From an uncultured Candidatus Saccharibacteria bacterium (GTDB taxonomy: Bacteria > Patescibacteriota > Minisyncoccia > 2-02-FULL-40-12 > GWA2-44-9): a stretch of DNA of 64,000 nt. Below are positions 2,360 to 50,043 of the stretch, one piece after another (the stretch's first letter is position 1; each line of letters begins with the position of its first letter). Location of the stretch: assembly GCA_964513645.1 (NCBI GenBank), contig CAZENF010000003.1, positions 127,914-191,913 of the forward strand. The letters run 5' to 3'. The position numbers and the translations under genes were made by a program. A model generated the notes under the pieces. It had not been told where the DNA came from. It saw only the letters and a program-made list of their open reading frames with translations, and searched no databases.

Positions 2360-3493
2360 CTATCCTTTTAAAGGTGATGTCCTAAGTTTAGGTTCTTTAT
2401 GATTCTTAAGTTCGTTTATAAATTCTTCAAAATCAGTGTGGGCAACACAAACATAACTATCGGCTCCACCGTAATAGACAAGAAGTTTTCTGTTCTTTAC
2501 CACCGCGCCTGAAGCATAGACAACTCCGCCTTTAAAACCGTGATTCTCGTAATGTTCGTTCGGTTCAAGTATCGGAGCTTTTGCCCGGGCGATTATTCTA
2601 GTCGGATCGTCTTGGTCAAGAAGCATTGCTCCGACGCGGTATTTGCCCCAGTCGTTATCCATTGCGTGATAGAACAAGAGCCAGCCATATTTAGTCTTAA
2701 TCGGTACCGGTCCTGCGCCACGTAGCCACCTATCCCAACAGTTTTTTCTGCGTTTTCCGCCGCCGTGGAAACTTTGAATATAATTTGTATCATCGAATTC
2801 CATCGTATCTCGGTACTCAACTTTTATTTCAGGATTTATGCTGTGCAATATCGCGTATTTTCCTTTTATTTTTTCCGGGAATATCAGCCAGTTTTTATGA
2901 ACCTCTCCGGGAGGGGAAAGAAGGATGGGTTCGGTCCAGTTCCACCTCTTATTTCTGAAGTCATCAACTTTTATGGAAGTTAAAGCGACCCGTAAATCTC
3001 CGTTGCAGGCGGTGTAGGTCATAAAAAGAGCATCTTCATTGCCTACTCTGACTATTCTCGGGTCTTCTCCGCCGCCCCATGAGCCGCCGGAAAAATATGA
3101 AAAAACATTATAAGACCTTTTTTGGTTAGGGTGTTCATAGGCCGGTTGAGGGTGGCGCTCTTTTATTCCAAAACCGTCGTCTGATGCGGCATAACCCAGA
3201 CGGGAAACACCGTCAGGTCCTATTGCCCGGTACATAAAATGAACTTTATCATCGAGCTGGACAACTCCTGGATTAAACGTCTGCCAGCCGTCCCATTCAT
3301 TGTTGTGCCGGGGAGAGATTATCGGATTAGAATGCGGTTTCCGAAGGGCTAATTTTGGAAAAGATTTTTTGGCCGGAGATTTTTTCTGTTTTTTTTGGTT
3401 TTTCGGTTTTGAAACCAACTTAACATTTCTCTTTTTTGGAGTTGTCGTTTTTTCTGTTTTTTTTCTGCCAAATCTTGACTTTTTTTGGGCCAT
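2360..3493 (-). CDS. GH130 family glycoside phosphorylase with a lysine-rich, disordered N-terminal tail of about 50 aa
   Basis: GGEDPRIVRVGNEDALFMTYTACNGD and YYGGADSYVCVA GH130 motifs. N-terminus is MAQKKSRFGRKKTEKTTTPKKRNVKLVSKPKNQKKQKKSPAKK. Confidence 0.7.
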   Translation of the reverse strand: MAQKKSRFGRKKTEKTTTPKKRNVKLVSKPKNQKKQKKSPAKKSFPKLALRKPHSNPIISPRHNNEWDGWQTFNPGVVQLDDKVHFMYRAIGPDGVSRLGYAASDDGFGIKERHPQPAYEHPNQKRSYNVFSYFSGGSWGGGEDPRIVRVGNEDALFMTYTACNGDLRVALTSIKVDDFRNKRWNWTEPILLSPPGEVHKNWLIFPEKIKGKYAILHSINPEIKVEYRDTMEFDDTNYIQSFHGGGKRRKNCWDRWLRGAGPVPIKTKYGWLLFYHAMDNDWGKYRVGAMLLDQDDPTRIIARAKAPILEPNEHYENHGFKGGVVYASGAVVKNRKLLVYYGGADSYVCVAHTDFEEFINELKNHKEPKLRTSPLKG

Positions 3494-3614
3494 TTAAGTA
3501 TGAAAAGACACTTAAATTATAAGGCTTTTTTACTTCTTAGACAAACAAAAATGGTGGATAACAATATTGATATAAATGATAGTATTTTGGTCATAAATCG
3601 TGTATTATTAAATT

Positions 3615-4358
3615 GTGAAGAAGAATCTATTGATCATGGGAATATTGTTTATTGTCCTGACCTTTGGGACGTTTTTTGTTTTGAAAAAAGACCAGCCTGG
3701 CAAGATCGGAGAACCGTTGCCGTCGCCCCGTCAGTATGTGTCGCCAACAACCAAAGCCAGTCCGTCAGTTTCCACTGTGTCCGGGGGTCTTCCTTCAGAA
3801 ATAAATCTCAACGTACCTTTTACTTCACAGGCGCCTTTTCAGGACTGGAGTCTGCCGTATGATGAATTTTGCGAGGAAGCATCGACCCTGATGGCGGCAA
3901 GTTATATCAAAGGTTCGCCGATAATAGACCCGGCAGATGCGAATAAAAAACTTTTGGAGATAAAAGCGTTTGAAGAAAAGTTCTTTGGTTTTTACGAGGA
4001 TACAAATACCGAACAGACTGCCATGATACTCACTAACTATTATGGTATCAAAAACATTAAAGTTTTATATGAACCCACTCTCGATGATATTAAAAAGTCT
4101 CTTGCCGGAGGTAAGGTTGTTTTGCTACCCGCAGCCGGGCAATTACTCGGCAACCCGTATTACCGTCAGCCGGGACCCATTTATCACATGCTTGTACTGA
4201 AGGGCTATACCAAGGACGGCAATATTATCACTAACGATCCTGGAACAAGAAGAGGCGAGAATTATATTTACGACGCTTCGGTTCTAATGAATGCGATGCA
4301 TGATTGGAATAACGGGGACATCCTCTCCGGCCGCAAAGCAGTCATAATAGTGGGCTAA
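3615..4358 (+). CDS. Membrane-anchored papain-like (peptidase C39-like) domain protein
   Basis: GTG start; N-terminal TM helix. Q...C pattern (SQAPFQDWSLPYDEFCEEAS) with a downstream His (PIYHMLVLKGY) and ITNDPG, typical of the C39-like Cys/His fold. Confidence 0.45.
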   Translation: MKKNLLIMGILFIVLTFGTFFVLKKDQPGKIGEPLPSPRQYVSPTTKASPSVSTVSGGLPSEINLNVPFTSQAPFQDWSLPYDEFCEEASTLMAASYIKGSPIIDPADANKKLLEIKAFEEKFFGFYEDTNTEQTAMILTNYYGIKNIKVLYEPTLDDIKKSLAGGKVVLLPAAGQLLGNPYYRQPGPIYHMLVLKGYTKDGNIITNDPGTRRGENYIYDASVLMNAMHDWNNGDILSGRKAVIIVG

Positions 4359-4369
4359 TATCTAAAATT

Positions 4370-4494
4370 AAAAATCCCGCGTAGGCTTCAGTCTATGAAG
4401 GGACTTGCGCAGGCCGACTGGGCCGAGCACGAAGCAAAATTTCAGCAGAAATTTATGCTGTGCCCTGAATGGGCTGAAGCCGAGAGCGGGATTT
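4370..4494 (+). other. Long imperfect inverted repeat of about 125 nt at the boundary of the GC-rich island. It may be the terminator of the upstream gene, a structured RNA or an insertion boundary
   Basis: aaaatcccgcgtaggcttcag (4370-4390) is complementary to ctgaagccgagagcgggatttt (4473-4494); GC content rises abruptly from here. Confidence 0.35.
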
Positions 4495-4511
4495 TCGTAG
4501 GAGCATTAAAC

Positions 4512-4540
4512 TTGCATATATAGAAGTTTTGTGTTATAAT
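4512..4540 (+). promoter_or_regulatory. Near-consensus sigma70 promoter (TTGCAT-17 nt-TATAAT)
   Basis: ttgcat at 4512-4517, 17-nt spacer, tataat at 4535-4540; lies about 75 nt upstream of the GC-rich ORF. Confidence 0.6.
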
Positions 4541-4616
4541 CTTGAAAGTACCATGGATAGGGGCAATTTCGTCCCATCCTATCTCTCGATCCGCCCCGGG
4601 CGGTGAAGGAGGAAAA

Positions 4617-5003
4617 ATGAAGATTCAAGTCGTCTCGAGGGATCCGCGTGTTCCGTTCCAGATTTCCAAAGAGAACGAGAAGAGGATTTACGAGTCTGCC
4701 GAAACCGCCGATGCGCTCAAGGCGCTCAACAGCATCGATCGGATCGCCAAGGTCATGGAGCTCTACGCTTCGGCGAAGATGATTCTCGCGAACCTCCATC
4801 AGTCGAAGATGGTGCGCCGTCTTGCCCACTGGCAGACGACCTGCCGTTTCGACGGCTGCCCGAAACAGCCCCGCATCGTCGGCCGCCGTCAGACCAGGAC
4901 TCATCTTTTCTGCAAGGGTCACACGTTGGTTGCGAGCTGCCTGTCGCGCGTGGACTACGAACGTCTCAAGTCGAGCTCGATGCTCCGCGTTGTCGTCGGG
5001 TAG
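4617..5003 (+). CDS. Small Cys/His-containing basic protein encoded on a GC-rich (about 58% GC) island; function unknown
   Basis: ATG at 4617 preceded by GGAGG (aaggaggaaaaATG). 128 aa; C-terminal CRFDGC...LFCKGH...ASC cluster. GC-rich codon usage unlike neighbouring genes. The track ORF 4542..5003 uses an upstream TTG. Confidence 0.5.
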   Translation: MKIQVVSRDPRVPFQISKENEKRIYESAETADALKALNSIDRIAKVMELYASAKMILANLHQSKMVRRLAHWQTTCRFDGCPKQPRIVGRRQTRTHLFCKGHTLVASCLSRVDYERLKSSSMLRVVVG

Positions 5004-5008
5004 TATCT

Positions 5009-5046
5009 GCCCCGCCTGATTAAATTCAGGCGGGGCCATTTTATTT
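5009..5046. terminator. Bidirectional intrinsic terminator between convergent genes
   Basis: gccccgcctga-ttaaat-tcaggcggggc perfect 11-bp stem, followed by cattttattta. Confidence 0.75.
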
Positions 5047-6403
5047 ATATGGTTCTATGAGGGTCGAGTTCTGTATCAGTCAAAGGCGATTGAGGCAGTT
5101 GTCGGATACGATATGGCAGGAGGATAATTAGAAACAGCATTTCGGTTGTACTGGCCAAAGCGAATGCGACCGGAATGGCTAAGATATCAAGCGACGGTAA
5201 CAGGAGATAACCTACCCCGATGGCGATGATCAGACCTATCACTGACATTATCACCGGTATCACGGTGTTTTTTGTTGCATAAAAAGCTCGGGCCAGAAGG
5301 TGGATAATAGATTCGGTCGGAATGCCCAAGGTAAATATTCCAAGAGTCATCGCGGTTCTGGCAATGGCTTTTTCATCAAAGCGTCCGCCGCCTAAGACGA
5401 GGCGTATCAAAGGTTCTCTGATGATGAACGTAACAACCGCGCAAAAAACACTGCCGGCAAATATCAGCAGAAAAGAATCTTTTAAGGTTTTTTTAAATTT
5501 TTCAGTTGAATGGGAAGCGATGGTTTCCGAAAGGACCGGAAAGGCGGTGGTGGCGAAAGTTATACCTATCAGACTGACCGGAACGCTCATGAAGTCTCTG
5601 GCAAAATTCATGACCGCGACCGAACCGGCGCTTAAACTCGAAGCCAGAACGGTGAATCCCCAGAACATTGCGAGCTCGACTGGATGGCCGAACATTTTAG
5701 GAAGCATCAGCGCAACGGTTTTTTTGAATTCTGGCGTTTTGAAATTAAAATTCATTTTAAATTTATAACCAGAAAGATAGCCGTCGATAATGCGGATGAG
5801 CATGTGGAACCCCGCGCCGCAGACGGTGCCGATTGCTACCCCGTTTATCCCGAAATATGGCGACAAAAATACCGCGCCCAATATCATCCCTAAGTTATAA
5901 AGTATCGGTGAAATTCCGTAGAAGAAAAATCTTTTTTTAGCCACCAGCATCGCTCCGATGGTATTGGATACCCCGAACATTATCGGCGATAACGAAAGCC
6001 ATCTTAAAATTCCGGTAACCATCGCCCGGCCTTCGGCGTCAAATCCGGGAGCGACGATAAAACTTATCTGCTTGGCAAAAACCACGAAAAATATTCCGGT
6101 CATGGTCATGGTTATTATCGCGGCTGAAACGACTGAATTTGAATAGGCATATGCCTTTTCGTGGTCTGATCGGTAAATTTCGCTGAAAAGAGGGACGAAA
6201 GCAGCCGCAATCCCGCTGGCAATAAGGATATTAAACAAAAGGTCGGGCATTAAAAAAGCGGCATTGTAAGCGTCCAACGCCCGTGAGGCGCCGAAAATAT
6301 GGGCAAACAGACGGTCTCTGAAAAGACCGAGCAGGTAAGAAACCAGGGTGGTCGAGGCTAAAACAGCGCTTCCGGCCGGAACGATCTTGAGGAGTTTGTT
6401 CAT
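5045..6403 (-). CDS. murJ: Lipid II flippase MurJ (MviN), MOP superfamily
   Basis: 452 aa polytopic protein; N-terminus LLGLFRDRLFAHIFGASRALDAYNAAFLMPDLLFNILIASGIAAAFVPLFSE is the canonical MurJ start. Confidence 0.85.
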   Translation of the reverse strand: MNKLLKIVPAGSAVLASTTLVSYLLGLFRDRLFAHIFGASRALDAYNAAFLMPDLLFNILIASGIAAAFVPLFSEIYRSDHEKAYAYSNSVVSAAIITMTMTGIFFVVFAKQISFIVAPGFDAEGRAMVTGILRWLSLSPIMFGVSNTIGAMLVAKKRFFFYGISPILYNLGMILGAVFLSPYFGINGVAIGTVCGAGFHMLIRIIDGYLSGYKFKMNFNFKTPEFKKTVALMLPKMFGHPVELAMFWGFTVLASSLSAGSVAVMNFARDFMSVPVSLIGITFATTAFPVLSETIASHSTEKFKKTLKDSFLLIFAGSVFCAVVTFIIREPLIRLVLGGGRFDEKAIARTAMTLGIFTLGIPTESIIHLLARAFYATKNTVIPVIMSVIGLIIAIGVGYLLLPSLDILAIPVAFALASTTEMLFLIILLPYRIRQLPQSPLTDTELDPHRTI

Positions 6404-6424
6404 ATAATGTGATAAAATAATAAC

Positions 6425-6826
6425 ATGACCAAATCTATATACAAAATTCTTATCGTTGAAGATGAAAAACTTATGCAGGAGCTCCTTACCGACCGTCTTT
6501 CTAAAGAGCCGATATTTAAGATCTACACCGCCAGCAACGGTGAGGAAGGGTTCGAAGTTTGCCGGGAATATATTCCAGACCTGATACTCCTTGATATAAA
6601 AATGCCTGTTATGGACGGGATAATGATGATGAGGGAGTTAAAAAAATACGAACAACTCAAGGATATTCCGATAATATTTCTGACCAATCTCGATCCGGAT
6701 GAGGACATTATCAAAAAGATCTCGGAAGAAAAACCGTCATACTACCTTATCAAAGCGAAAACAAATCTCGAGGATATTACCGAGAGGGTTAAAGAGACTC
6801 TTTCTGCAAAAAGACCGACATCTTAA
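6425..6826 (+). CDS. Stand-alone response regulator receiver (CheY-like) protein
   Basis: ILIVEDEKLMQELL...DLILLDIKMPVMDG...IIFLT; acidic pocket, phospho-acceptor Asp and conserved Lys contexts present; no output domain. Confidence 0.85.
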   Translation: MTKSIYKILIVEDEKLMQELLTDRLSKEPIFKIYTASNGEEGFEVCREYIPDLILLDIKMPVMDGIMMMRELKKYEQLKDIPIIFLTNLDPDEDIIKKISEEKPSYYLIKAKTNLEDITERVKETLSAKRPTS

Positions 6827-6898
6827 AAAAGCCGGACAGGCCCAAAAACTCTTATAATTTAAGGAAATTTAATCCATAGGCTGGTCAGCTGGTTTTTT

Positions 6899-7447
6899 TT
6901 GTGTAACAATTTGGCGCCAATAACGTCTTCAAATATGTCAGAACATAACGTGCTCAATGAACAATTCATGCAAGCCTATGACCAGTTTTCAGATGCTATA
7001 TTCAGGCATTGCTGGTTTAGGATTGGGGATCGTGAGAAGGCCAAAGATCTGATGCAGGATACTTTCACCAAATCATGGCAGTACATCGCCGATGGGGGCG
7101 TGGTCCAGAACCTTAAGCCATTTCTTTACCGCGTTGCCAATAATCTTATAATTGATGAATACCGGAAGAAAAAAGAACTTTCGCTTGATAGTCTTCAGAC
7201 CCTGGGCTTTGATCCTGGATTTGACGACCGGAACAGGAATGACAACCGGATCGACGCCAAACTGGCGGTCAGTGTGGTGAATCAGCTCGACGATAAATAT
7301 AAAGAGGTGGTTTTGATGAGATATATTGACGACATGTCGCCTTCGGAAATTGCCGAAGCCGTCGGAGAATCGGAGAATAACGTTTCAGTCAGGATACATC
7401 GCGGCCTTAAACAGTTAAAAGAAATTCTTGGAAAAAATGGAAGATAA
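6899..7447 (+). CDS. ECF-type RNA polymerase sigma-70 family factor
   Basis: Region 2 (LMQDTFTKSWQYI...YRVANNLIIDEYRKKK) and region 4 helix-turn-helix (LMRYIDDMSPSEIAEAVGESENNVSVRIHRGLKQLKEIL). Start may be the ATG at 6935 (MSEHNV). Confidence 0.85.
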   Translation: MCNNLAPITSSNMSEHNVLNEQFMQAYDQFSDAIFRHCWFRIGDREKAKDLMQDTFTKSWQYIADGGVVQNLKPFLYRVANNLIIDEYRKKKELSLDSLQTLGFDPGFDDRNRNDNRIDAKLAVSVVNQLDDKYKEVVLMRYIDDMSPSEIAEAVGESENNVSVRIHRGLKQLKEILGKNGR

Positions 7448-8303
7448 AAATTTCGAACAATTTATAAAAGAAGTTAGAAAGTCTGGCCTTTCCGACGAAG
7501 AACGTAACTCTATCCGGGAGTCAGTTTTTAATTTTATAAAAAATAATCCTGTAAGCGGTCAAACCCAACCCCGTCTCAAATACAGTTCCGGAAAAAATTT
7601 CTGGGACTGGTCGAGTATATATTTAAGAAATTTTAATTTAGCATCCATCATGGCACTATTACTCATCTTAACAGTAGCAGTTTCAAGCGGTGTCGGCCTG
7701 GCGGCTGAAAAAGCTCTGCCCGGCGACTTCCTTTATCCGGTGAAGCTCAATGTTAACGAGAACATTAGAGGTTTGACCAATATCACCGATCAACAAAAGG
7801 CCGATTGGGAAATTCAAAAAGCCGACCGCCGGCTCGAAGAAGCGGAAAACCTGGCTTCGAAAGGTTCTCTGGACTCGAAGAATCAGGCTGTTATCGAGGC
7901 TAATTTTGAAGCCCAATCTCGAAAAGTAAAGGACAGAATAAATAGTTTTGAAGATAAAAGTGACTTCAAGGCGGCGGCAAGCGTAAGCGCCAGTTTTGAA
8001 ACATCTCTGCAGGTTCACGAAAAAATATTACAGAAGATATCTGAAGAAAAAAAAGATTCTAAGAAAGATATCGAACCTATCGACGCTAAGATACGTTCGG
8101 AAGTAACAAGCATCAGGAACAGAAGAGACCACCTTGAGCTAAAGATAAGGTCCCACGGAAATACTAAGTTTAGGGAAGGTAAAAAAAGCAGTTCAAGTGA
8201 CGATAATTGGTCGGACACAGAGGTTAACGATGACATCAACATGAAAACAGCCAGCAGCTCAATCCGGCAAGACGGACATCTCAGATTAAAACTTAGATTT
8301 TAA
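7428..8303 (+). CDS. Single-pass membrane protein co-transcribed with the ECF sigma factor (putative anti-sigma / DUF5667-like)
   Basis: Overlaps the sigma gene by 20 nt; cytoplasmic N-domain, one TM (ASIMALLLILTVAVSSGVGLAA), then an extracytoplasmic coiled-coil-rich domain (LYPVKLNVNENIRG...). Confidence 0.45.
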   Translation: MEKMEDKNFEQFIKEVRKSGLSDEERNSIRESVFNFIKNNPVSGQTQPRLKYSSGKNFWDWSSIYLRNFNLASIMALLLILTVAVSSGVGLAAEKALPGDFLYPVKLNVNENIRGLTNITDQQKADWEIQKADRRLEEAENLASKGSLDSKNQAVIEANFEAQSRKVKDRINSFEDKSDFKAAASVSASFETSLQVHEKILQKISEEKKDSKKDIEPIDAKIRSEVTSIRNRRDHLELKIRSHGNTKFREGKKSSSSDDNWSDTEVNDDINMKTASSSIRQDGHLRLKLRF

Positions 8304-39796: not shown

Positions 39797-42440
39797 GACA
39801 TCATTAAATTTAGCTTTTTCAGGCCAGGACTTACTATTTCCAATGAACAACAATTCGGAGGGAAAATTATACATTGCGGGTATCTTGGTTGCCTTGGCCG
39901 TCATAATATTGGCGGGATATTTCCTATCCCCGTTTTCGTTTACTTTTGATCTTGCTAATTTACACGGTTCTCTTCAGGGCGGGAAGAATCCTCAACAGTA
40001 CGCCGCTTTGGTTTCTCCCGGCCTTGATACAACTCCTCCGATTGTAAGTTCCTTCGATATGCAACCCCGGACTATCAGTGCGGGCAATTATGCCACCGCC
40101 TCTTTTAATGTTACCGACTCTGGTGGCTCTCATATTGTCCGTGTTGCTCTTAACCGTGCGCCGTATAGCTCCTCCGGTTGTAATGTCGCTGATAAGTCAA
40201 GTTGTGACTGGATAAGCGTTGCAAATTCAAATACTTCTTCTGGCCTCGATTCCTGGACCGGGACTTTGATGGATAACCCTGGCCAGGGTACTTGGTGGTA
40301 CGGTTTTATGGTGGTGGACGGTGCCAATAATTTCGGCTATGAACCGGCTACAGTCGAGGTCATAGTTACAGCTGCTGTTCCGACCCCGACTCCGGGTGCG
40401 GATACTATCAAACCCAAAGTAACTTCTTTTGATGTTCAACCCCGAAATATAAATGTTGGTAGCTCTGTTAAAGTTTCCTTTACAGTAGTTGATTCTGGTG
40501 GTTCACATTTGAGTCGTGTTGGTATCAATCGGGCTTTATATAATTCAACCAACTGCAATGCTTCGGTAAAAACCGGTTGTCAGTGGGTCAGTGGCGGAAG
40601 ATTGTATCCTACAAGCGGATTAGATTCATGGTCTTCAAGTGCTGATAATTCTCCTGCTCTTGGAACATGGTGGTATGGTATATATGTAACTGATAATGGC
40701 GGTAATTTCGGATACGAGCCATATCAGATACAGGTTATCGTAAATCCTGCCTCGACACCTACTGCAACTCCATCACCAACTGCGACTCCTACGCCCACAC
40801 CAACTCCGACACCGAGGCCGAGTTCAACGTCGGTTCCGACGCCTACGCCCGGTTCAGGAGGACCTGGACCTACTACGCCTCCGACACCTACTCCGACTCC
40901 GACACCTGTTCCGACCGGCAGCGACACTATAAGACCGAAAGTAAACGCTTTTGATGTTCAACCTCGAACCCTTAACGTTGGCGGTTCAGTTCTGGCAACC
41001 TTTACTGTTTCTGATACCGGTGGCTCTCACTTATCTAAAGTCGGCTTCAGTCGGGCATCATATAATTCTTCAAATTGCAGCGAAACAGTAAAAACCACCT
41101 GCCAGTGGGTCAGTTTAGCAAAGACAGCGACACCTTATACCGACAACTGGAATTCTTCCTGGGCCGATACTCCTTCCGCCGGAACCTGGTGGTATGGAAT
41201 GTCTGCGACAGATGGCGCCGGCAATGTTGGCTATGAACCGGCAACGCTCGAAGTGTTCGTGAATACTGTTTCTTCAACCCCGACTTCGACTCCTGTTCCG
41301 GTTCCTACTGCCACTCCAAGCCAAACTCCTGTTCCGACACCTGCCCCAACTCCAACTCCGATACCTACGCCCGTTCCTACGGCAATTCCGACACCGACTC
41401 CAACTCCGTCACCAACTGTAACCCAGAATTATTCTTTTGGTTTTTCTGTAGCTGAAAGTTTCCTACCTTTATCAAGTGCTGAACTAAATGCTCGTATGGA
41501 TGATTTAGTGGCTTTGCATATTGGCTGGCTAAGGTTTGATATCGACTGGTCATCAGTGCAAGGACTAAATTCAACAATCTTTGATTGGACAGCTATAGAT
41601 AATTTAATAAGTGCAGCCAATTCGCATCACATAAAGCTTATGCCGGTTATTGATTCGACTCCACCTTGGGCTCGGCCGGCTAATTGTACTTCTAATAAAT
41701 GGTGTCCGCCGGCTGATAATAATGCTTTCGCAAATTTTGCCAAAGCTGTTGTTCAACGTTATACACCTCAAGGAGTCCATACTTGGGAAATATGGAACGA
41801 ACCCAATATCAATAGTTTTTGGCAATCTGGCCCTAATTCATCAGCTTATGCAAATCTTTTGACGGCAACCTATAATGCGATCAAAAGCGTAGATTCTTCC
41901 GCAACTGTTATATCGGCAGGATTGGCTCCTGCCGCCACTCAAGGTTCAACTATATCGCCAGTAGATTTCTTAACCAGTATGTATCAGGCGGGAGCCAAAA
42001 ATTACTTTGACGCTGTCGGTTTTCATCCATATTCATTCCCGGCCATGCCTTCTTACTACGCGGTTTGGAATGCCTGGTCGCAGATGTCCTCTACACCCAC
42101 AAGTTTGCGAAGTGTAATGTCGGCCAACGGAGATTCGGCTAAACAGATATGGTTAACCGAATATGGCGCACCTACAGGAGGGCCAGGAGCCGTTGCAGAC
42201 GTTAATAATTATAACTTCTCGGCCAGCCCGGATCATGTTACCGAAGCATTACAAGCGTCGATGTATCAGGATTCTATTAATTTGGTCCGGGGCTATTCAT
42301 GGGCCGGACCAATGTTCTTCTATTCCTATAAAGACTTAGGTACCTCTTCGAGCACCAACGAGAACTTCTTTGGCGTAATAAGATATGACGGCACTCAAAA
42401 ACCGGCTTATCAGACGGTAAAACAACTACTCGCCCAATAG
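39795..42440 (+). CDS. Secreted multidomain glycoside hydrolase: three repeated ~115-aa beta-domains joined by Pro/Thr-rich linkers + C-terminal GH5-like (clan GH-A) catalytic domain
   Basis: N-terminal signal/TM; three repeats (FD(M/V)QPR..(V/A)SF.V.DSGGSH..RV...RA.Y.S..C.....C.W.S......TWWYG......N.GYEP....V.V); PTPTPTPTP linkers; catalytic EIWNEPN (acid/base) and IWLTEYGAPTGG (nucleophile) motifs. True start may be 39843. Confidence 0.7.
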   Translation: MTSLNLAFSGQDLLFPMNNNSEGKLYIAGILVALAVIILAGYFLSPFSFTFDLANLHGSLQGGKNPQQYAALVSPGLDTTPPIVSSFDMQPRTISAGNYATASFNVTDSGGSHIVRVALNRAPYSSSGCNVADKSSCDWISVANSNTSSGLDSWTGTLMDNPGQGTWWYGFMVVDGANNFGYEPATVEVIVTAAVPTPTPGADTIKPKVTSFDVQPRNINVGSSVKVSFTVVDSGGSHLSRVGINRALYNSTNCNASVKTGCQWVSGGRLYPTSGLDSWSSSADNSPALGTWWYGIYVTDNGGNFGYEPYQIQVIVNPASTPTATPSPTATPTPTPTPTPRPSSTSVPTPTPGSGGPGPTTPPTPTPTPTPVPTGSDTIRPKVNAFDVQPRTLNVGGSVLATFTVSDTGGSHLSKVGFSRASYNSSNCSETVKTTCQWVSLAKTATPYTDNWNSSWADTPSAGTWWYGMSATDGAGNVGYEPATLEVFVNTVSSTPTSTPVPVPTATPSQTPVPTPAPTPTPIPTPVPTAIPTPTPTPSPTVTQNYSFGFSVAESFLPLSSAELNARMDDLVALHIGWLRFDIDWSSVQGLNSTIFDWTAIDNLISAANSHHIKLMPVIDSTPPWARPANCTSNKWCPPADNNAFANFAKAVVQRYTPQGVHTWEIWNEPNINSFWQSGPNSSAYANLLTATYNAIKSVDSSATVISAGLAPAATQGSTISPVDFLTSMYQAGAKNYFDAVGFHPYSFPAMPSYYAVWNAWSQMSSTPTSLRSVMSANGDSAKQIWLTEYGAPTGGPGAVADVNNYNFSASPDHVTEALQASMYQDSINLVRGYSWAGPMFFYSYKDLGTSSSTNENFFGVIRYDGTQKPAYQTVKQLLAQ

Positions 42441-45339: not shown

Positions 45340-46470
45340 ATGAATTCAAGTTTTAATAAAGATCTTACCAAAAGATTTATTATCGCTTTTTATGTTGGGG
45401 CGTTTTTGGCGTCTTATATCATCCAGCCCTTGATATTTTCTGTTTCGGCTCACGACAGCCCAGATTATGAATGTAAGGACCGCGGTTTTGACTTTGGTAT
45501 TGTAAAATACGATTCAGGCGGTACGGGTCCGGATACTGACGGCGCTTCCGGTTCAGACGGATACCAAACCGGCGTTGAATGGGACGGCAATATCGTGAAA
45601 TGGAATTCCGATCCGGGTGTATCCGGCGTGATAACCAAAGAGGGCGATATTTCTTATGTTAATTCGGGCGGCAGTCGGGGCAGTATTACCCAACACGGCC
45701 AGTATCCTTTTAGCCATATAACTTTTTGCGGAAAAAACTTTCATCCGACTCCGACACCGAGTCCAGTTTGTACGCCTTCTTCAACCCCGACACCTCGACC
45801 GACCACCACTCCGCATCCTACTTATACGCCGACTCCTCATCCAAGTGTAGGTCCAACTCCGACTCTAAGCCCGCTTCCTTCAGTCACTCCAAGTCCTTCA
45901 CCCTCGCCAACATCAATGCCTACTCCGATACCCACACCTTCAGCAATTCCCTCTGTAACCCCAACACCAACTCCTACGCCTTCAACAACTCCGATGGTCA
46001 CGGCTACACCTTCGCCAACTCTTGAACCTTCGGTAACTCCTGAAGTAACACCTGACCCTTCTGATACACCGATTCCGACTCCGGACCCTTCTGATACACC
46101 AACTCCGACCAATATACCTAATCCAAATCCGCCCCCTCCGCCTATCGGCGGCGGATGTTACGGCTGTGAACCTTATGTTCCGCCAAGTCCGTCTCCGATA
46201 CCCGGTGAGGGTTCTGTAGTAACTCCGACTCCGACGCCGGACTCCTCCGGTTCCCAGCCGTCCCAAAGCTTTGGCGGGCAGTTTGTTCCGGTATTACCGC
46301 CTCAGGTTTTTGGTTACTCAACTTGTTGCCTTCCTGATACTGATTCATCTTTGTTCGAGAGATTTATGATATCCATATTTACCGCCTCGGCCATGACGGG
46401 ACTCCTAATGATGATAATTGGTTTTGACCTCCTGCCTAAGTTTTTGCTCTCAACCGGCTATAAAAATTAA
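45340..46470 (+). CDS. Pro/Thr/Ser-rich cell-surface protein with C-terminal sortase-type sorting signal
   Basis: N-terminal TM/signal, globular domain, about 180 aa of PTPTPSPSP low-complexity. C-terminus LPDTD + hydrophobic stretch ([17 protein letters not shown]) + KN-containing tail. Immediately upstream of the sortase gene. Confidence 0.55.
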
Positions 46471-49698: not shown

Positions 49699-50043
49699 GT
49701 GAAGAAATTATATGTAGGCAATCTGCCCTACTCAACCACTGATGCCGATTTGAAGAGCATGGTCTCTCAATACGGTTCAGTCGATTCTGCTTCTGTCCTC
49801 ATGGACAGAATGTCGGGTCGTTCAAGAGGTTTCGGATTCGTCGAAATGTCGAACGATGATGAAGCCCAGGCCGCAATTGACGGTTTGAACGGTAAAGAGT
49901 TCGAAGGCAGGAAGCTGGTTGTCAATGAAGCCAGACCGCCTGCCGAACGAGGCCCTCGAAGGAGCTTCGGTGGCGGTGGCGGTGGACGTGGTGGATTTGG
50001 CGGCGGACGCGGAGGCTACGGCCGAGGCGGCGACAGCTACTAA
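49699..50043 (+). CDS. RRM-type RNA-binding protein with Gly/Arg-rich C-terminal tail
   Basis: RNP2 LYVGNL, RNP1 RGFGFVEM, C-terminal GGGGGGRGGFGGGRGGYGRGG; GTG start. Confidence 0.85.
   Translation: MKKLYVGNLPYSTTDADLKSMVSQYGSVDSASVLMDRMSGRSRGFGFVEMSNDDEAQAAIDGLNGKEFEGRKLVVNEARPPAERGPRRSFGGGGGGRGGFGGGRGGYGRGGDSY

Follow-up and report, generated by a model that had tools for sequence, protein, structure and literature searches.

A GC-rich mini-gene with a conserved two-hairpin leader and a putative zinc-knuckle protein in Saccharibacteria-type bacteria

We analyzed a 64,000-nt stretch of DNA (here called the window) from an uncultured Candidatus Saccharibacteria bacterium (contig CAZENF010000003.1 of assembly GCA_964513645.1), in which a GC-rich segment at 4370–5046 carries a small gene with its own expression signals. 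This segment is probably best read as a mini-gene that forms a transcription unit of its own, has its translation gated, and encodes a basic Cys3His protein that would bind nucleic acid and may regulate its own gene; its GC-richness is a heritable property of the family. A first-pass annotation, made from the letters of the window alone, had taken the segment for a recently acquired mini-cassette. That interpretation is partly supported: the mini-gene is genuine, whereas recent acquisition is unsupported.

Composition and coding content of the island

The segment contains 54.1% GC and its coding sequence (CDS; 4617–5003, plus strand) 58.4%, compared with 42.9% in the remainder of the window, in agreement with the GC-rich island first described. 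The top 400-nt GC peak of the 64 kb coincides with this island (0.58, with a window mean of 0.43 and a standard deviation of 0.041). The codon usage is also as GC-rich as had been annotated and is alien to the surrounding genome. GC content at the first, second, and third codon positions (GC1, GC2, and GC3) is 0.55, 0.42, and 0.78, whereas host GC3, taken from 41 long reading frames of the window, is 0.459 ± 0.052 with a maximum of 0.553; the gene lies 6 standard deviations off the host value. Adenine occupies 4% of its third codon positions versus 23% in the host, and G/C-ending codons are favored for nearly all amino acids. The spacer of the island's promoter has a GC content of only 21%.

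Elsewhere in the window, high GC coincides with Pro/Thr-rich linkers, an RGG tail, or conserved enzymes, including glycogen synthase. We rejected these spots as similar islands, and because they are otherwise explained, the island at 4370–5046 is unique in the window. One local peak is accounted for by the gene of an RRM-type RNA-binding protein with a Gly/Arg-rich tail (49699–50043, plus strand), and the peaks at 40700–40960 and 45700–46300 arise from long Pro/Thr/Ser linkers of two large secreted proteins.

The reading frame at 4617–5003 is a genuine protein gene. Its assignment to the plus strand follows from the coding-sequence signature of this frame (GC3 far above GC1, and GC1 above GC2), from the existence of homologues with invariant residues, from the poor folding of the CDS as RNA (worse than its own shuffles, z = +1.8), and from the absence of any Rfam gathering-score match to covariance models in the 64 kb, with leader, palindrome, and CDS all covered. 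The first-pass annotation had named a conserved structured RNA as the finding that would overturn the gene; we examined this candidate and rejected it for the CDS on the same z value, and the coding reading stands. The only Rfam match at E ≤ 1 in 3000–7000 pairs the terminator with NsiR1 below threshold (24.6 bits versus 39). Across the entire window there is likewise no tRNA gene.

The 128-aa product is basic (pI 10.2) and contains the C-x4-C...C-x2-H cluster noted at first reading, with putative zinc-knuckle ligands C76-x4-C81-x17-C99-x2-H102. AlphaFold2 models it with a pLDDT of 92.7 and a pTM of 0.73 as N- and C-terminal strands, a helical hairpin (18–73), a zinc knuckle (74–104), and two short helices, and a search with this model found no structural neighbor. 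A 190-aa homologue (pLDDT 87.6) is predicted to share this core, with an enlarged helical bundle, a four-helix expansion. Sequence searches of Pfam, NCBIfam, PHROGs, PADLOC, and the PDB gave nothing above threshold for the window protein. The PADLOC anti-phage defense profiles gave no match to it at all; two longer homologues match unrelated PADLOC models weakly through coiled regions (best E = 0.001; others ~0.01–0.02). From the basic charge and the zinc motif, we infer that the Cys3His knuckle would bind zinc and that the protein would bind nucleic acid.

The gene is framed by its own signals. A sigma-70-type promoter at 4512–4540 (plus strand) comprises the annotated −35 TTGCAT (4512–4517), a 17-nt AT-rich spacer, and TATAAT (4535–4540), to which a preceding TG (4532–4533) adds an extended −10 element, TGtTATAAT (4532–4540). 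The −35 hexamer agrees with TTGACA at only 3/6 positions, and a consensus scanner missed the promoter for this reason. It aligns with the TTGAC[AT]-17-TATAAT promoters of homologous loci; both hexamers are kept from locus to locus, whereas the 17 nt between them, AT-rich across loci, are unrelated in sequence. Transcription would be expected to start at about 4546–4548. Read directly, the Shine–Dalgarno sequence (SD) AAGGAGG at 4606–4612 is separated by 4 nt from an ATG at 4617–4619 (4606–4619, plus strand). The GGAGG of the first-pass annotation thus exists (4608–4612), although the start codon begins at 4617 and not at 4618, and the position of the SD is conserved in leader alignments.

Downstream, a scanner matched an intrinsic terminator at 5009–5046 (plus strand) with an 11-bp stem (5009–5019/5026–5036), in which 9 of 11 pairs are G–C, followed by TTTTATTT and a T-run at 5039–5046. 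This T-run exists on the plus strand only. On the minus strand the tail is AGAUACUACCC, so the terminator is not canonically bidirectional, and the "strong bidirectional terminator" first proposed is reduced to a terminator on the plus strand. The T-run adjoins the stop codon of the convergent murJ gene (open reading frame [ORF] 5045–6403, minus strand). Homologous cassettes likewise end in a G+C-rich hairpin and a T-run, with different terminator sequences.

The opposite strand carries an ORF at 4506–5039 that had been described as equally long but that is in fact longer (177 versus 128 aa). It is the only product of this locus in the public collection (P0001, a singleton cluster), and the plus-strand product is not on record. 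The window gene contains none of the sense codons TTA, CTA, and TCA, the only ones that could give stops in the antisense frame, and we rejected antisense coding because the frame is a shadow that stays open wherever these codons are absent. Its ATG falls within the terminator stem and has no ribosome-binding site (RBS), and a word-indexed homologue search with it returned only itself. The equivalent frame is open in 4/5 homologues checked and has a stop in L007, and gene callers chose the plus-strand gene in the other loci. The 177-aa ORF is most likely spurious. Gene callers may systematically choose antisense shadow ORFs of this kind wherever a GC3-rich island lies in an AT-rich genome.

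An unannotated family and the age of its GC-richness

The 128-aa protein belongs to a previously unannotated family in groundwater ultra-small bacteria of the candidate phyla radiation (CPR) type. An exhaustive HMMER scan of 1.84 billion representatives (~15 billion proteins) returned 11 matches, nine of which are true, full-length relatives (P0005–P0010 and P0012–P0014; E = 2.9e-17 to 5e-5). The other two (P0011 and P0015) are giant-virus-like EsV-1-7 repeat proteins that share the Cys motif only. The first-pass statement that the protein has no obvious family was accurate for annotated families, none of which scores above threshold, but it overlooked these nine homologues. P0016 came from a profile search, and further copies, some of them never gene-called, came from DNA scans and locus look-ups. 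A word-indexed homologue search with the 128-aa protein and scans of IMG/VR and the JGI metagenomes with the single protein found nothing. Pfam, NCBIfam, PHROGs, PADLOC, and Rfam contain neither the protein nor its leader.

Family members share invariant P10, A53, M65, R68, C76, C81, K83, P85, C99, H102, L123, and R124, a conserved N-terminus (MK[VI]xEKDPRVPF), and a conserved C-terminus (NLRVVA). Their length differences reflect a variable-length insertion in one helical region, the spacer between ligands 2 and 3 is longer in most other members than the x17 of the window protein, and all are basic (pI 9.1–11.4). The EsV-1-7 domain (PF19114), found in phaeovirus and giant-virus proteins and in proteins of brown algae, has a similar arrangement (C-x4-C … C-x2-H, with FDGCxKQP … [FY]C..H), and the window protein fits the EsV-1-7 ligand pattern C-x4-C-x(~16)-C-x2-H with a spacer of x17. 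P0011 matches this motif with E = 1.6e-8 over nine repeats. The window protein reaches 13.7 bits (E = 0.058), below the gathering threshold of 25 bits, and 4/11 family members give weak matches at E < 0.1 (best 0.035), all below threshold. EsV-1-7 occurs as tandem repeats in eukaryotic viruses and algae, whereas here a single copy sits in a helical bacterial protein with conserved terminal strands. The order of elements in the model is also reminiscent of DksA/TraR-type proteins, in which a coiled-coil hairpin is followed by a zinc finger: the predicted helical hairpin precedes a four-ligand zinc site with ~17 residues between ligands 2 and 3, and C-terminal helices follow. The window protein has no sequence or fold match to zf-dskA_traR or DksA.

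The family is represented by 12 distinct loci: the window and L004, L007, L013, L014, L017, L069, L070, L073, L074, L075, and L076. Redundant copies were merged (L005, L006, L015, and L016 with L004; L008–L012 with L007; L071 and L072 with L070). The source records include several groundwater metagenomes and one GTDB genome of Candidatus Saccharibacteria. In five loci (L007, L017, L069, L070, and L076), the gene lies between genes for an O-antigen-ligase-like Wzy_C protein and UDG. Between these genomes, Wzy_C is 48–68%, UDG 62–80%, and the family protein 43–66% identical. Four of the five carry a conserved, GC-rich second gene of 58–63 aa after the family gene (L007 2350–2541; L069 1744–1920; L070 4590–4769; L076 2723–2914), with the product …INQADGSWK…QMDLDMQAGY.LAGRLKRAKKEK; in L017 the family gene is followed by a GC-rich 116-aa ORF. 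The second gene is 62–70% identical between genomes, reaches a GC3 of 0.73–0.88 in L069 and L070, and matches nothing in Pfam; the window lacks it.

Elsewhere, the family gene lies between MgtC and Lon genes (L004), beside holB (L013), beside dus (L014), and, in the window, between a C39-like peptidase gene and murJ. The family gene occupies at least six different genomic contexts. The flanks are housekeeping or cellular genes (C39-like peptidase, MurJ, Wzy_C, UDG, and Lon). Both the window copy and L013 are of the single-gene type, and neither has a closer relative in the family than the other (45–48% identity). The window copy looks translocated because its site differs from the commonest one and the second gene is missing.

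Several individual loci have features of their own. The family gene of L014 (4959–5351) is broken: its reading frame ends at 5171 and homology resumes in another frame, indicating a pseudogene or an assembly error, with promoter, leader, and terminator intact. The Wzy_C|UDG site of L004 (6648–6958, minus strand) holds a different, uncalled mini-gene of ~65% GC. Its ORF specifies 56 aa rich in Cys (MAKKGKGGRKSQKRPCRFCHRML…), its −10 is GTGGTATAAT, a hairpin pairs its SD, and it ends in a terminator of its own. Three contigs of 915–931 nt from unrelated datasets (L073, L074, and L075) contain little beyond the cassette; they may reflect repeated or variable contexts, or may simply be typical short assembly contigs.

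In all 12 loci, the gene is a GC-rich island, with 58–64% GC in DNA of 40–47% GC. Its GC3 is 0.69–0.86 where measured, the neighboring genes at the Wzy_C|UDG site have a GC3 of 0.38–0.44, and flank GC measured in L073–L076 is 28–44%. We found no homologue in a high-GC context among the 1.84 billion representatives, in IMG/VR, or in pattern scans of JGI metagenomes and GTDB genomes. The flank identities of 48–80% indicate that the operon has been inherited at the Wzy_C|UDG site through a divergence deep enough to saturate synonymous sites. Together, the recurrence of the island in every locus and this diverged synteny show that the composition has been inherited with the gene over long times. 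A fresh import of high-GC DNA is also unlikely because the promoter spacers are AT-rich and unconserved between loci. As judged from these sequences, the GC-richness is an old family-wide trait and not the mark of recent import, and the claim of recent acquisition does not survive the comparison. Relatives with the same segment at ordinary GC, which the first-pass annotation would have counted against itself, did not turn up; the relatives carry it at high GC, and the coding reading is unaffected.

Two observations point to variation at or near the cassette within populations. In Logan assemblies of SRR12313479 and SRR12313480, which sample the population of the window, the flanking genes are identical and the contigs break inside the island, at ~4400, 30 nt into the palindrome described below (the end of L001), and at ~4996, 8 nt into the 3′ end of the CDS (the ends of L002 and L003). 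The left break falls at the identical base in both. Such breaks suggest a branch in the assembly graph, that is, more than one island allele in the population. Among L007–L012, the flanks are 99.5–100% identical, but a 100-nt part of the second gene (+431 to +530, counted from the ATG of the family gene) gathers ~30 substitutions and a 3-nt indel; there L009 is a mosaic of two alleles. These clustered changes are a recombination tract; an origin resembling that of diversity-generating retroelements was rejected because the changes are not adenine-specific. The breaks and the tract together suggest local recombination.

Two candidate causes of the GC-richness emerge. One is a local recombination hotspot with GC-biased repair, in keeping with the tract and the contig breaks above; such repair has been put forward earlier for whole bacterial genomes (PMC4450053). 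The other candidate is selection acting on synonymous positions, which might favor an mRNA poor in AU and resistant to nucleases, or a decoding rate mismatched to the host. Antisense coding is not a cause, because it would require the avoidance of only three codons and not a global shift, and RNA structure in the CDS is excluded as a cause by its z of +1.8. A literature search on GC-rich genes in Saccharibacteria/Patescibacteria and on the sample accessions found nothing relevant.

The leader RNA and the palindrome

Between promoter and start codon, the leader is predicted to form two hairpins. Hairpin 1 (GGATAGGGGCAATTTCGTCCCATCC; 4555–4579, plus strand) lies near the predicted 5′ end of the mRNA. 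It appears in the minimum free energy (MFE) or centroid fold of 12/12 leaders folded independently, with differing sequences and conserved pairing, and alifold identifies double changes in its pairs. Hairpin 2 (4583–4611, plus strand) pairs the anti-SD stretch CUCU (4583–4586) with GGAG of the SD (4608–4611) and continues through a 4x4 internal loop (CGAU/UGAA) to an apical stem, CCGCC/GGCGG (4591–4595/4599–4603), with a CCG loop. It was recovered in each of the 12 leaders folded separately, in which UUUCCU pairs with AGGAGG over the 4x4 loop and an apical CCGCY/RGCGG stem. In the 12-sequence alignment, 98.5% of the cells of hairpin 2 are paired and three pairs are changed on both sides. Its covariation score was reached by 0/500 shuffles, and slid controls pair at 52–84%. 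The window is an outlier in which the SD is shifted by a 2-nt deletion and the anti-SD UCUCU replaces UUCCU, restoring the pairing.

The SD is accordingly base-paired in a conserved, covarying helix in 12/12 leaders, as is characteristic of SD-sequestering riboregulators, and this conserved leader structure occludes the SD. Because hairpin 2 pairs the SD, it would be expected to gate translation. The leader sequence after hairpin 1 is near-invariant (TTTCCTGGATCCGC-N5-GCGGTGATAGGAGG). Its core, GAYCCGC-N5-GCGGTGA, is present as a single copy in the window and in every homologous locus scanned, each time right before the gene, with a G–U variant (GTGGTGA) in L075 and L076; a pattern scan of IMG/VR did not find it. 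The interval between leader and ATG contains indels of 1–2 nt between loci, so the leader is non-coding and an upstream coding extension is excluded. The internal-loop nucleotides (GGAUC/GGUGAU) are almost invariant although the proteins are only ~40% identical, which suggests a specific ligand. The most economical candidate is possibly the basic product of the gene itself.

Autogenous ribosomal-protein and phage-coat leaders, and thermometers such as fourU and ROSE, contain a hairpin in the 5′ untranslated region that pairs the SD. The present leader resembles these operators in that an upstream pyrimidine stretch pairs the SD and an internal loop is left free for recognition or melting. Unlike the known elements, it has no match to an Rfam family and is known from sequence alone.

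Upstream of the promoter lies the 125-nt imperfect palindrome of the first-pass annotation, at 4371–4495 (plus strand), with perfect 10-nt ends (AAAATCCCGC/GCGGGATTTT). It fills the interval between the C39-like peptidase gene and the promoter, starting 13 nt past the peptidase stop codon and leaving 17 nt to the −35 hexamer. The predicted fold is a three-way junction with a long outer stem and two inner hairpins, around the core TTGCGCAGGC (4405–4414) … GCCGAGCAC (4422–4430); its MFE is −66.9 kcal/mol on the plus strand (z = −7.2) and −57.5 kcal/mol on the minus strand. It has no Rfam match. The sole similar element found is in L013 (~791–915), where the core TTGCGCAGGC…GCCGAGCAC, the architecture, and a similar AUUUC…GAAAU hairpin recur, and where the outer stem is wholly different in sequence yet still pairs. 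The L013 element keeps its orientation relative to the gene but lies 3′ of the terminator, whereas that of the window lies 5′ of the promoter. The other ten loci lack the element. A pattern search of IMG/VR with the core gave 50 matches, all of them chance occurrences inside GC-rich coding DNA and rejected; the palindrome therefore has no viral relatives there. The A-tract/stem/T-tract base of the palindrome could serve as a terminator for the peptidase gene upstream and as an insulator for the promoter, and the element is possibly associated with the cassette or with mobility. In L075, a small three-way hairpin (~20–85) lies directly upstream of the −35 hexamer, and its sub-hairpin AACCGCTTAGCGGTT shares CCGCTTAGCGG with the terminator of the same cassette (~835–860), hinting that the terminator was partly duplicated or that there was once a tandem array.

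Competing explanations and significance

In the mechanism that we favor, a strong sigma-70 promoter with an extended −10 element would drive a single-gene mRNA with a conserved ~70-nt two-hairpin leader. This mRNA would encode the 128-aa basic Cys3His zinc-knuckle protein and stop at the intrinsic terminator. Hairpin 2, by pairing the SD, would gate translation, and a specific partner would open or close the gate; our first guess for this partner is the encoded nucleic-acid-binding protein itself (autogenous control), with temperature as the alternative. A locus-specific force would hold synonymous sites GC-rich inside AT-rich genomes over long divergence, and the window copy would be a translocated, single-gene version of the family.

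Some observations weigh against this mechanism. The −35 hexamer is a weak match to consensus, the SD helix of the window is only 4 bp, and the whole leader is not significantly more stable than its shuffles (z = −1.1 to −1.9). Autoregulation and nucleic-acid binding are put forward as possibilities, from basic charge, zinc motif, and loop invariance. If GC-biased conversion were purely regional, the promoter spacers would not be expected to be AT-rich, although the spacers may themselves be under selection. The family is tiny, with about a dozen loci among ~15 billion proteins, and an unsampled GC-rich reservoir is conceivable. Finally, a MurJ-based scan of GTDB genomes found no relative and no empty C39|murJ site by which the insertion could be dated; apart from the window, these neighbors were met only on the Logan contigs of its own population, which end within the island.

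If the cassette had recently been acquired from a high-GC donor and not yet ameliorated, its codon usage, which resembles that of an organism of ~60–65% GC, would be expected, as would a compact, self-sufficient unit at a site that no other locus shares. We nevertheless consider this improbable, since 12/12 diverged copies are equally anomalous in AT-rich contexts, the syntenic copies span genomes with diverged flanks, and the search for high-GC-context homologues was negative while the promoter spacer of the island is AT-rich. For the family as a whole, recent import is already largely refuted. A different account treats the window copy as a translocated, mobile, moron-like cassette that includes the 125-nt hairpin as a recombination site or as a carried terminator or insulator. 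The variety of contexts, the different GC-rich mini-gene at the L004 Wzy_C|UDG site, the recurrence of the hairpin core on the opposite side of the gene in the closest single-gene relative, and the frequency with which contigs break at cassette edges all suit such a cassette. It is doubtful all the same: there is no target-site duplication and no inverted terminal repeat, no recombinase gene was found among the ORFs of 2500–7500, most loci lack the hairpin, and short metagenome contigs are common anyway.

Phage "morons", reportedly defined by Hendrix and colleagues, are units of promoter, gene, and terminator whose composition deviates from that of their neighbors. The island is similar in being one gene with its own sigma-70 promoter and intrinsic terminator, deviant in composition and placed between unrelated genes. 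It differs from morons in lying outside any prophage between cellular flanks, with no IMG/VR or PHROGs match. Morons are also regarded as recent additions, whereas the deviant composition here has persisted through long vertical inheritance. A likeness to integron cassettes is also apparent, with a small gene beside an imperfect palindrome (~60–140 nt) that precedes the gene in one locus and follows it in another, a pattern that arrayed cassettes would show. Unlike integron cassettes, which usually are promoterless, the gene has its own promoter, and the palindrome is found in only 2/12 loci. No integrase-like ORF adjoins the island, and no attC core sites (RYYYAAC/GTTRRRY) were seen at the palindrome ends by reading, no pattern search having been made.

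The remaining alternatives concern what the island encodes and whether it is real. GC-rich islands in AT-rich genomes are often RNA genes, and here both strands carry long ORFs that could be by-products of high GC; a structured non-coding RNA is highly improbable given the lack of an Rfam match, the z value of the CDS, the strong codon-position periodicity, the conservation of the proteins around a variable-length helical insertion, and the confident three-dimensional model. Scarcely more can be said for the 177-aa antisense ORF as a real or second overlapping gene. It is the longer ORF, was picked by the gene caller, and is open in most of the homologues checked, as any GC3-rich gene without TTA, CTA, and TCA would automatically leave it; the stop in L007, the start inside the terminator stem, the missing RBS, the lack of any homologue but itself, and the choice of the plus strand by the callers of the other loci make it very improbable. 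An assembly chimera, in which a high-GC fragment was stitched into a low-GC contig, would account for the independent Logan contigs that end inside the island, but these contigs pass without a break from host genes into the island, reaching the palindrome at the left and crossing the terminator to enter the CDS at the right, and the architecture recurs in eleven other loci from unrelated assemblies. We regard a chimera as hardly credible. An RNA thermometer, or some other switch acting in trans, is an unlikely alternative to an operator for the gene's own product, though the short SD/anti-SD helix of the leader with G–U pairs beside an internal loop is reminiscent of fourU and ROSE elements. 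The near-invariance of that loop suggests sequence-specific recognition and not simple melting, and the groundwater habitat, as given by the record names, is presumably thermally stable.

Having weighed these alternatives, we retain the reading of a gated mini-gene with heritable GC-richness. We also put forward, tentatively and as a possibility short of an even chance, a broader proposal: that a small CPR/Saccharibacteria-type operon family, with a new zinc-knuckle fold and an SD-gating leader RNA, has been held at ~60% GC (GC3 0.7–0.86) in ~43% GC genomes across deep divergence by a force acting on the CDS only, either a permanent recombination hotspot with GC-biased repair or selection for host-mismatched codons or AU-poor mRNA that would serve regulation or stability. 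This would amount to a locus-specific compositional equilibrium.

Computational surveys routinely take departures from host GC content and codon usage as marks of recent horizontal transfer. In the island, a strong marker (6 standard deviations) proves on comparison to be an old, inherited trait of one gene family and so offers a counter-example to the inference of transfer. The island also points to a systematic annotation error, in which gene callers choose the antisense shadow ORF. What is new here is a protein family missing from the annotation libraries, whose fold is predicted with confidence and has no structural neighbor, together with an unannotated, covarying 5′ leader RNA that is predicted to gate the ribosome-binding site. 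As the hosts are poorly understood bacteria with reduced genomes, a conserved, strongly promoted, regulator-like gene in them is of interest. The family offers a tractable system in which to ask what holds synonymous sites far from genomic equilibrium in bacteria, biased gene conversion or selection, and if its GC content is indeed held by a force confined to the CDS, it would exemplify, in nature, a compositional equilibrium specific to one bacterial locus.

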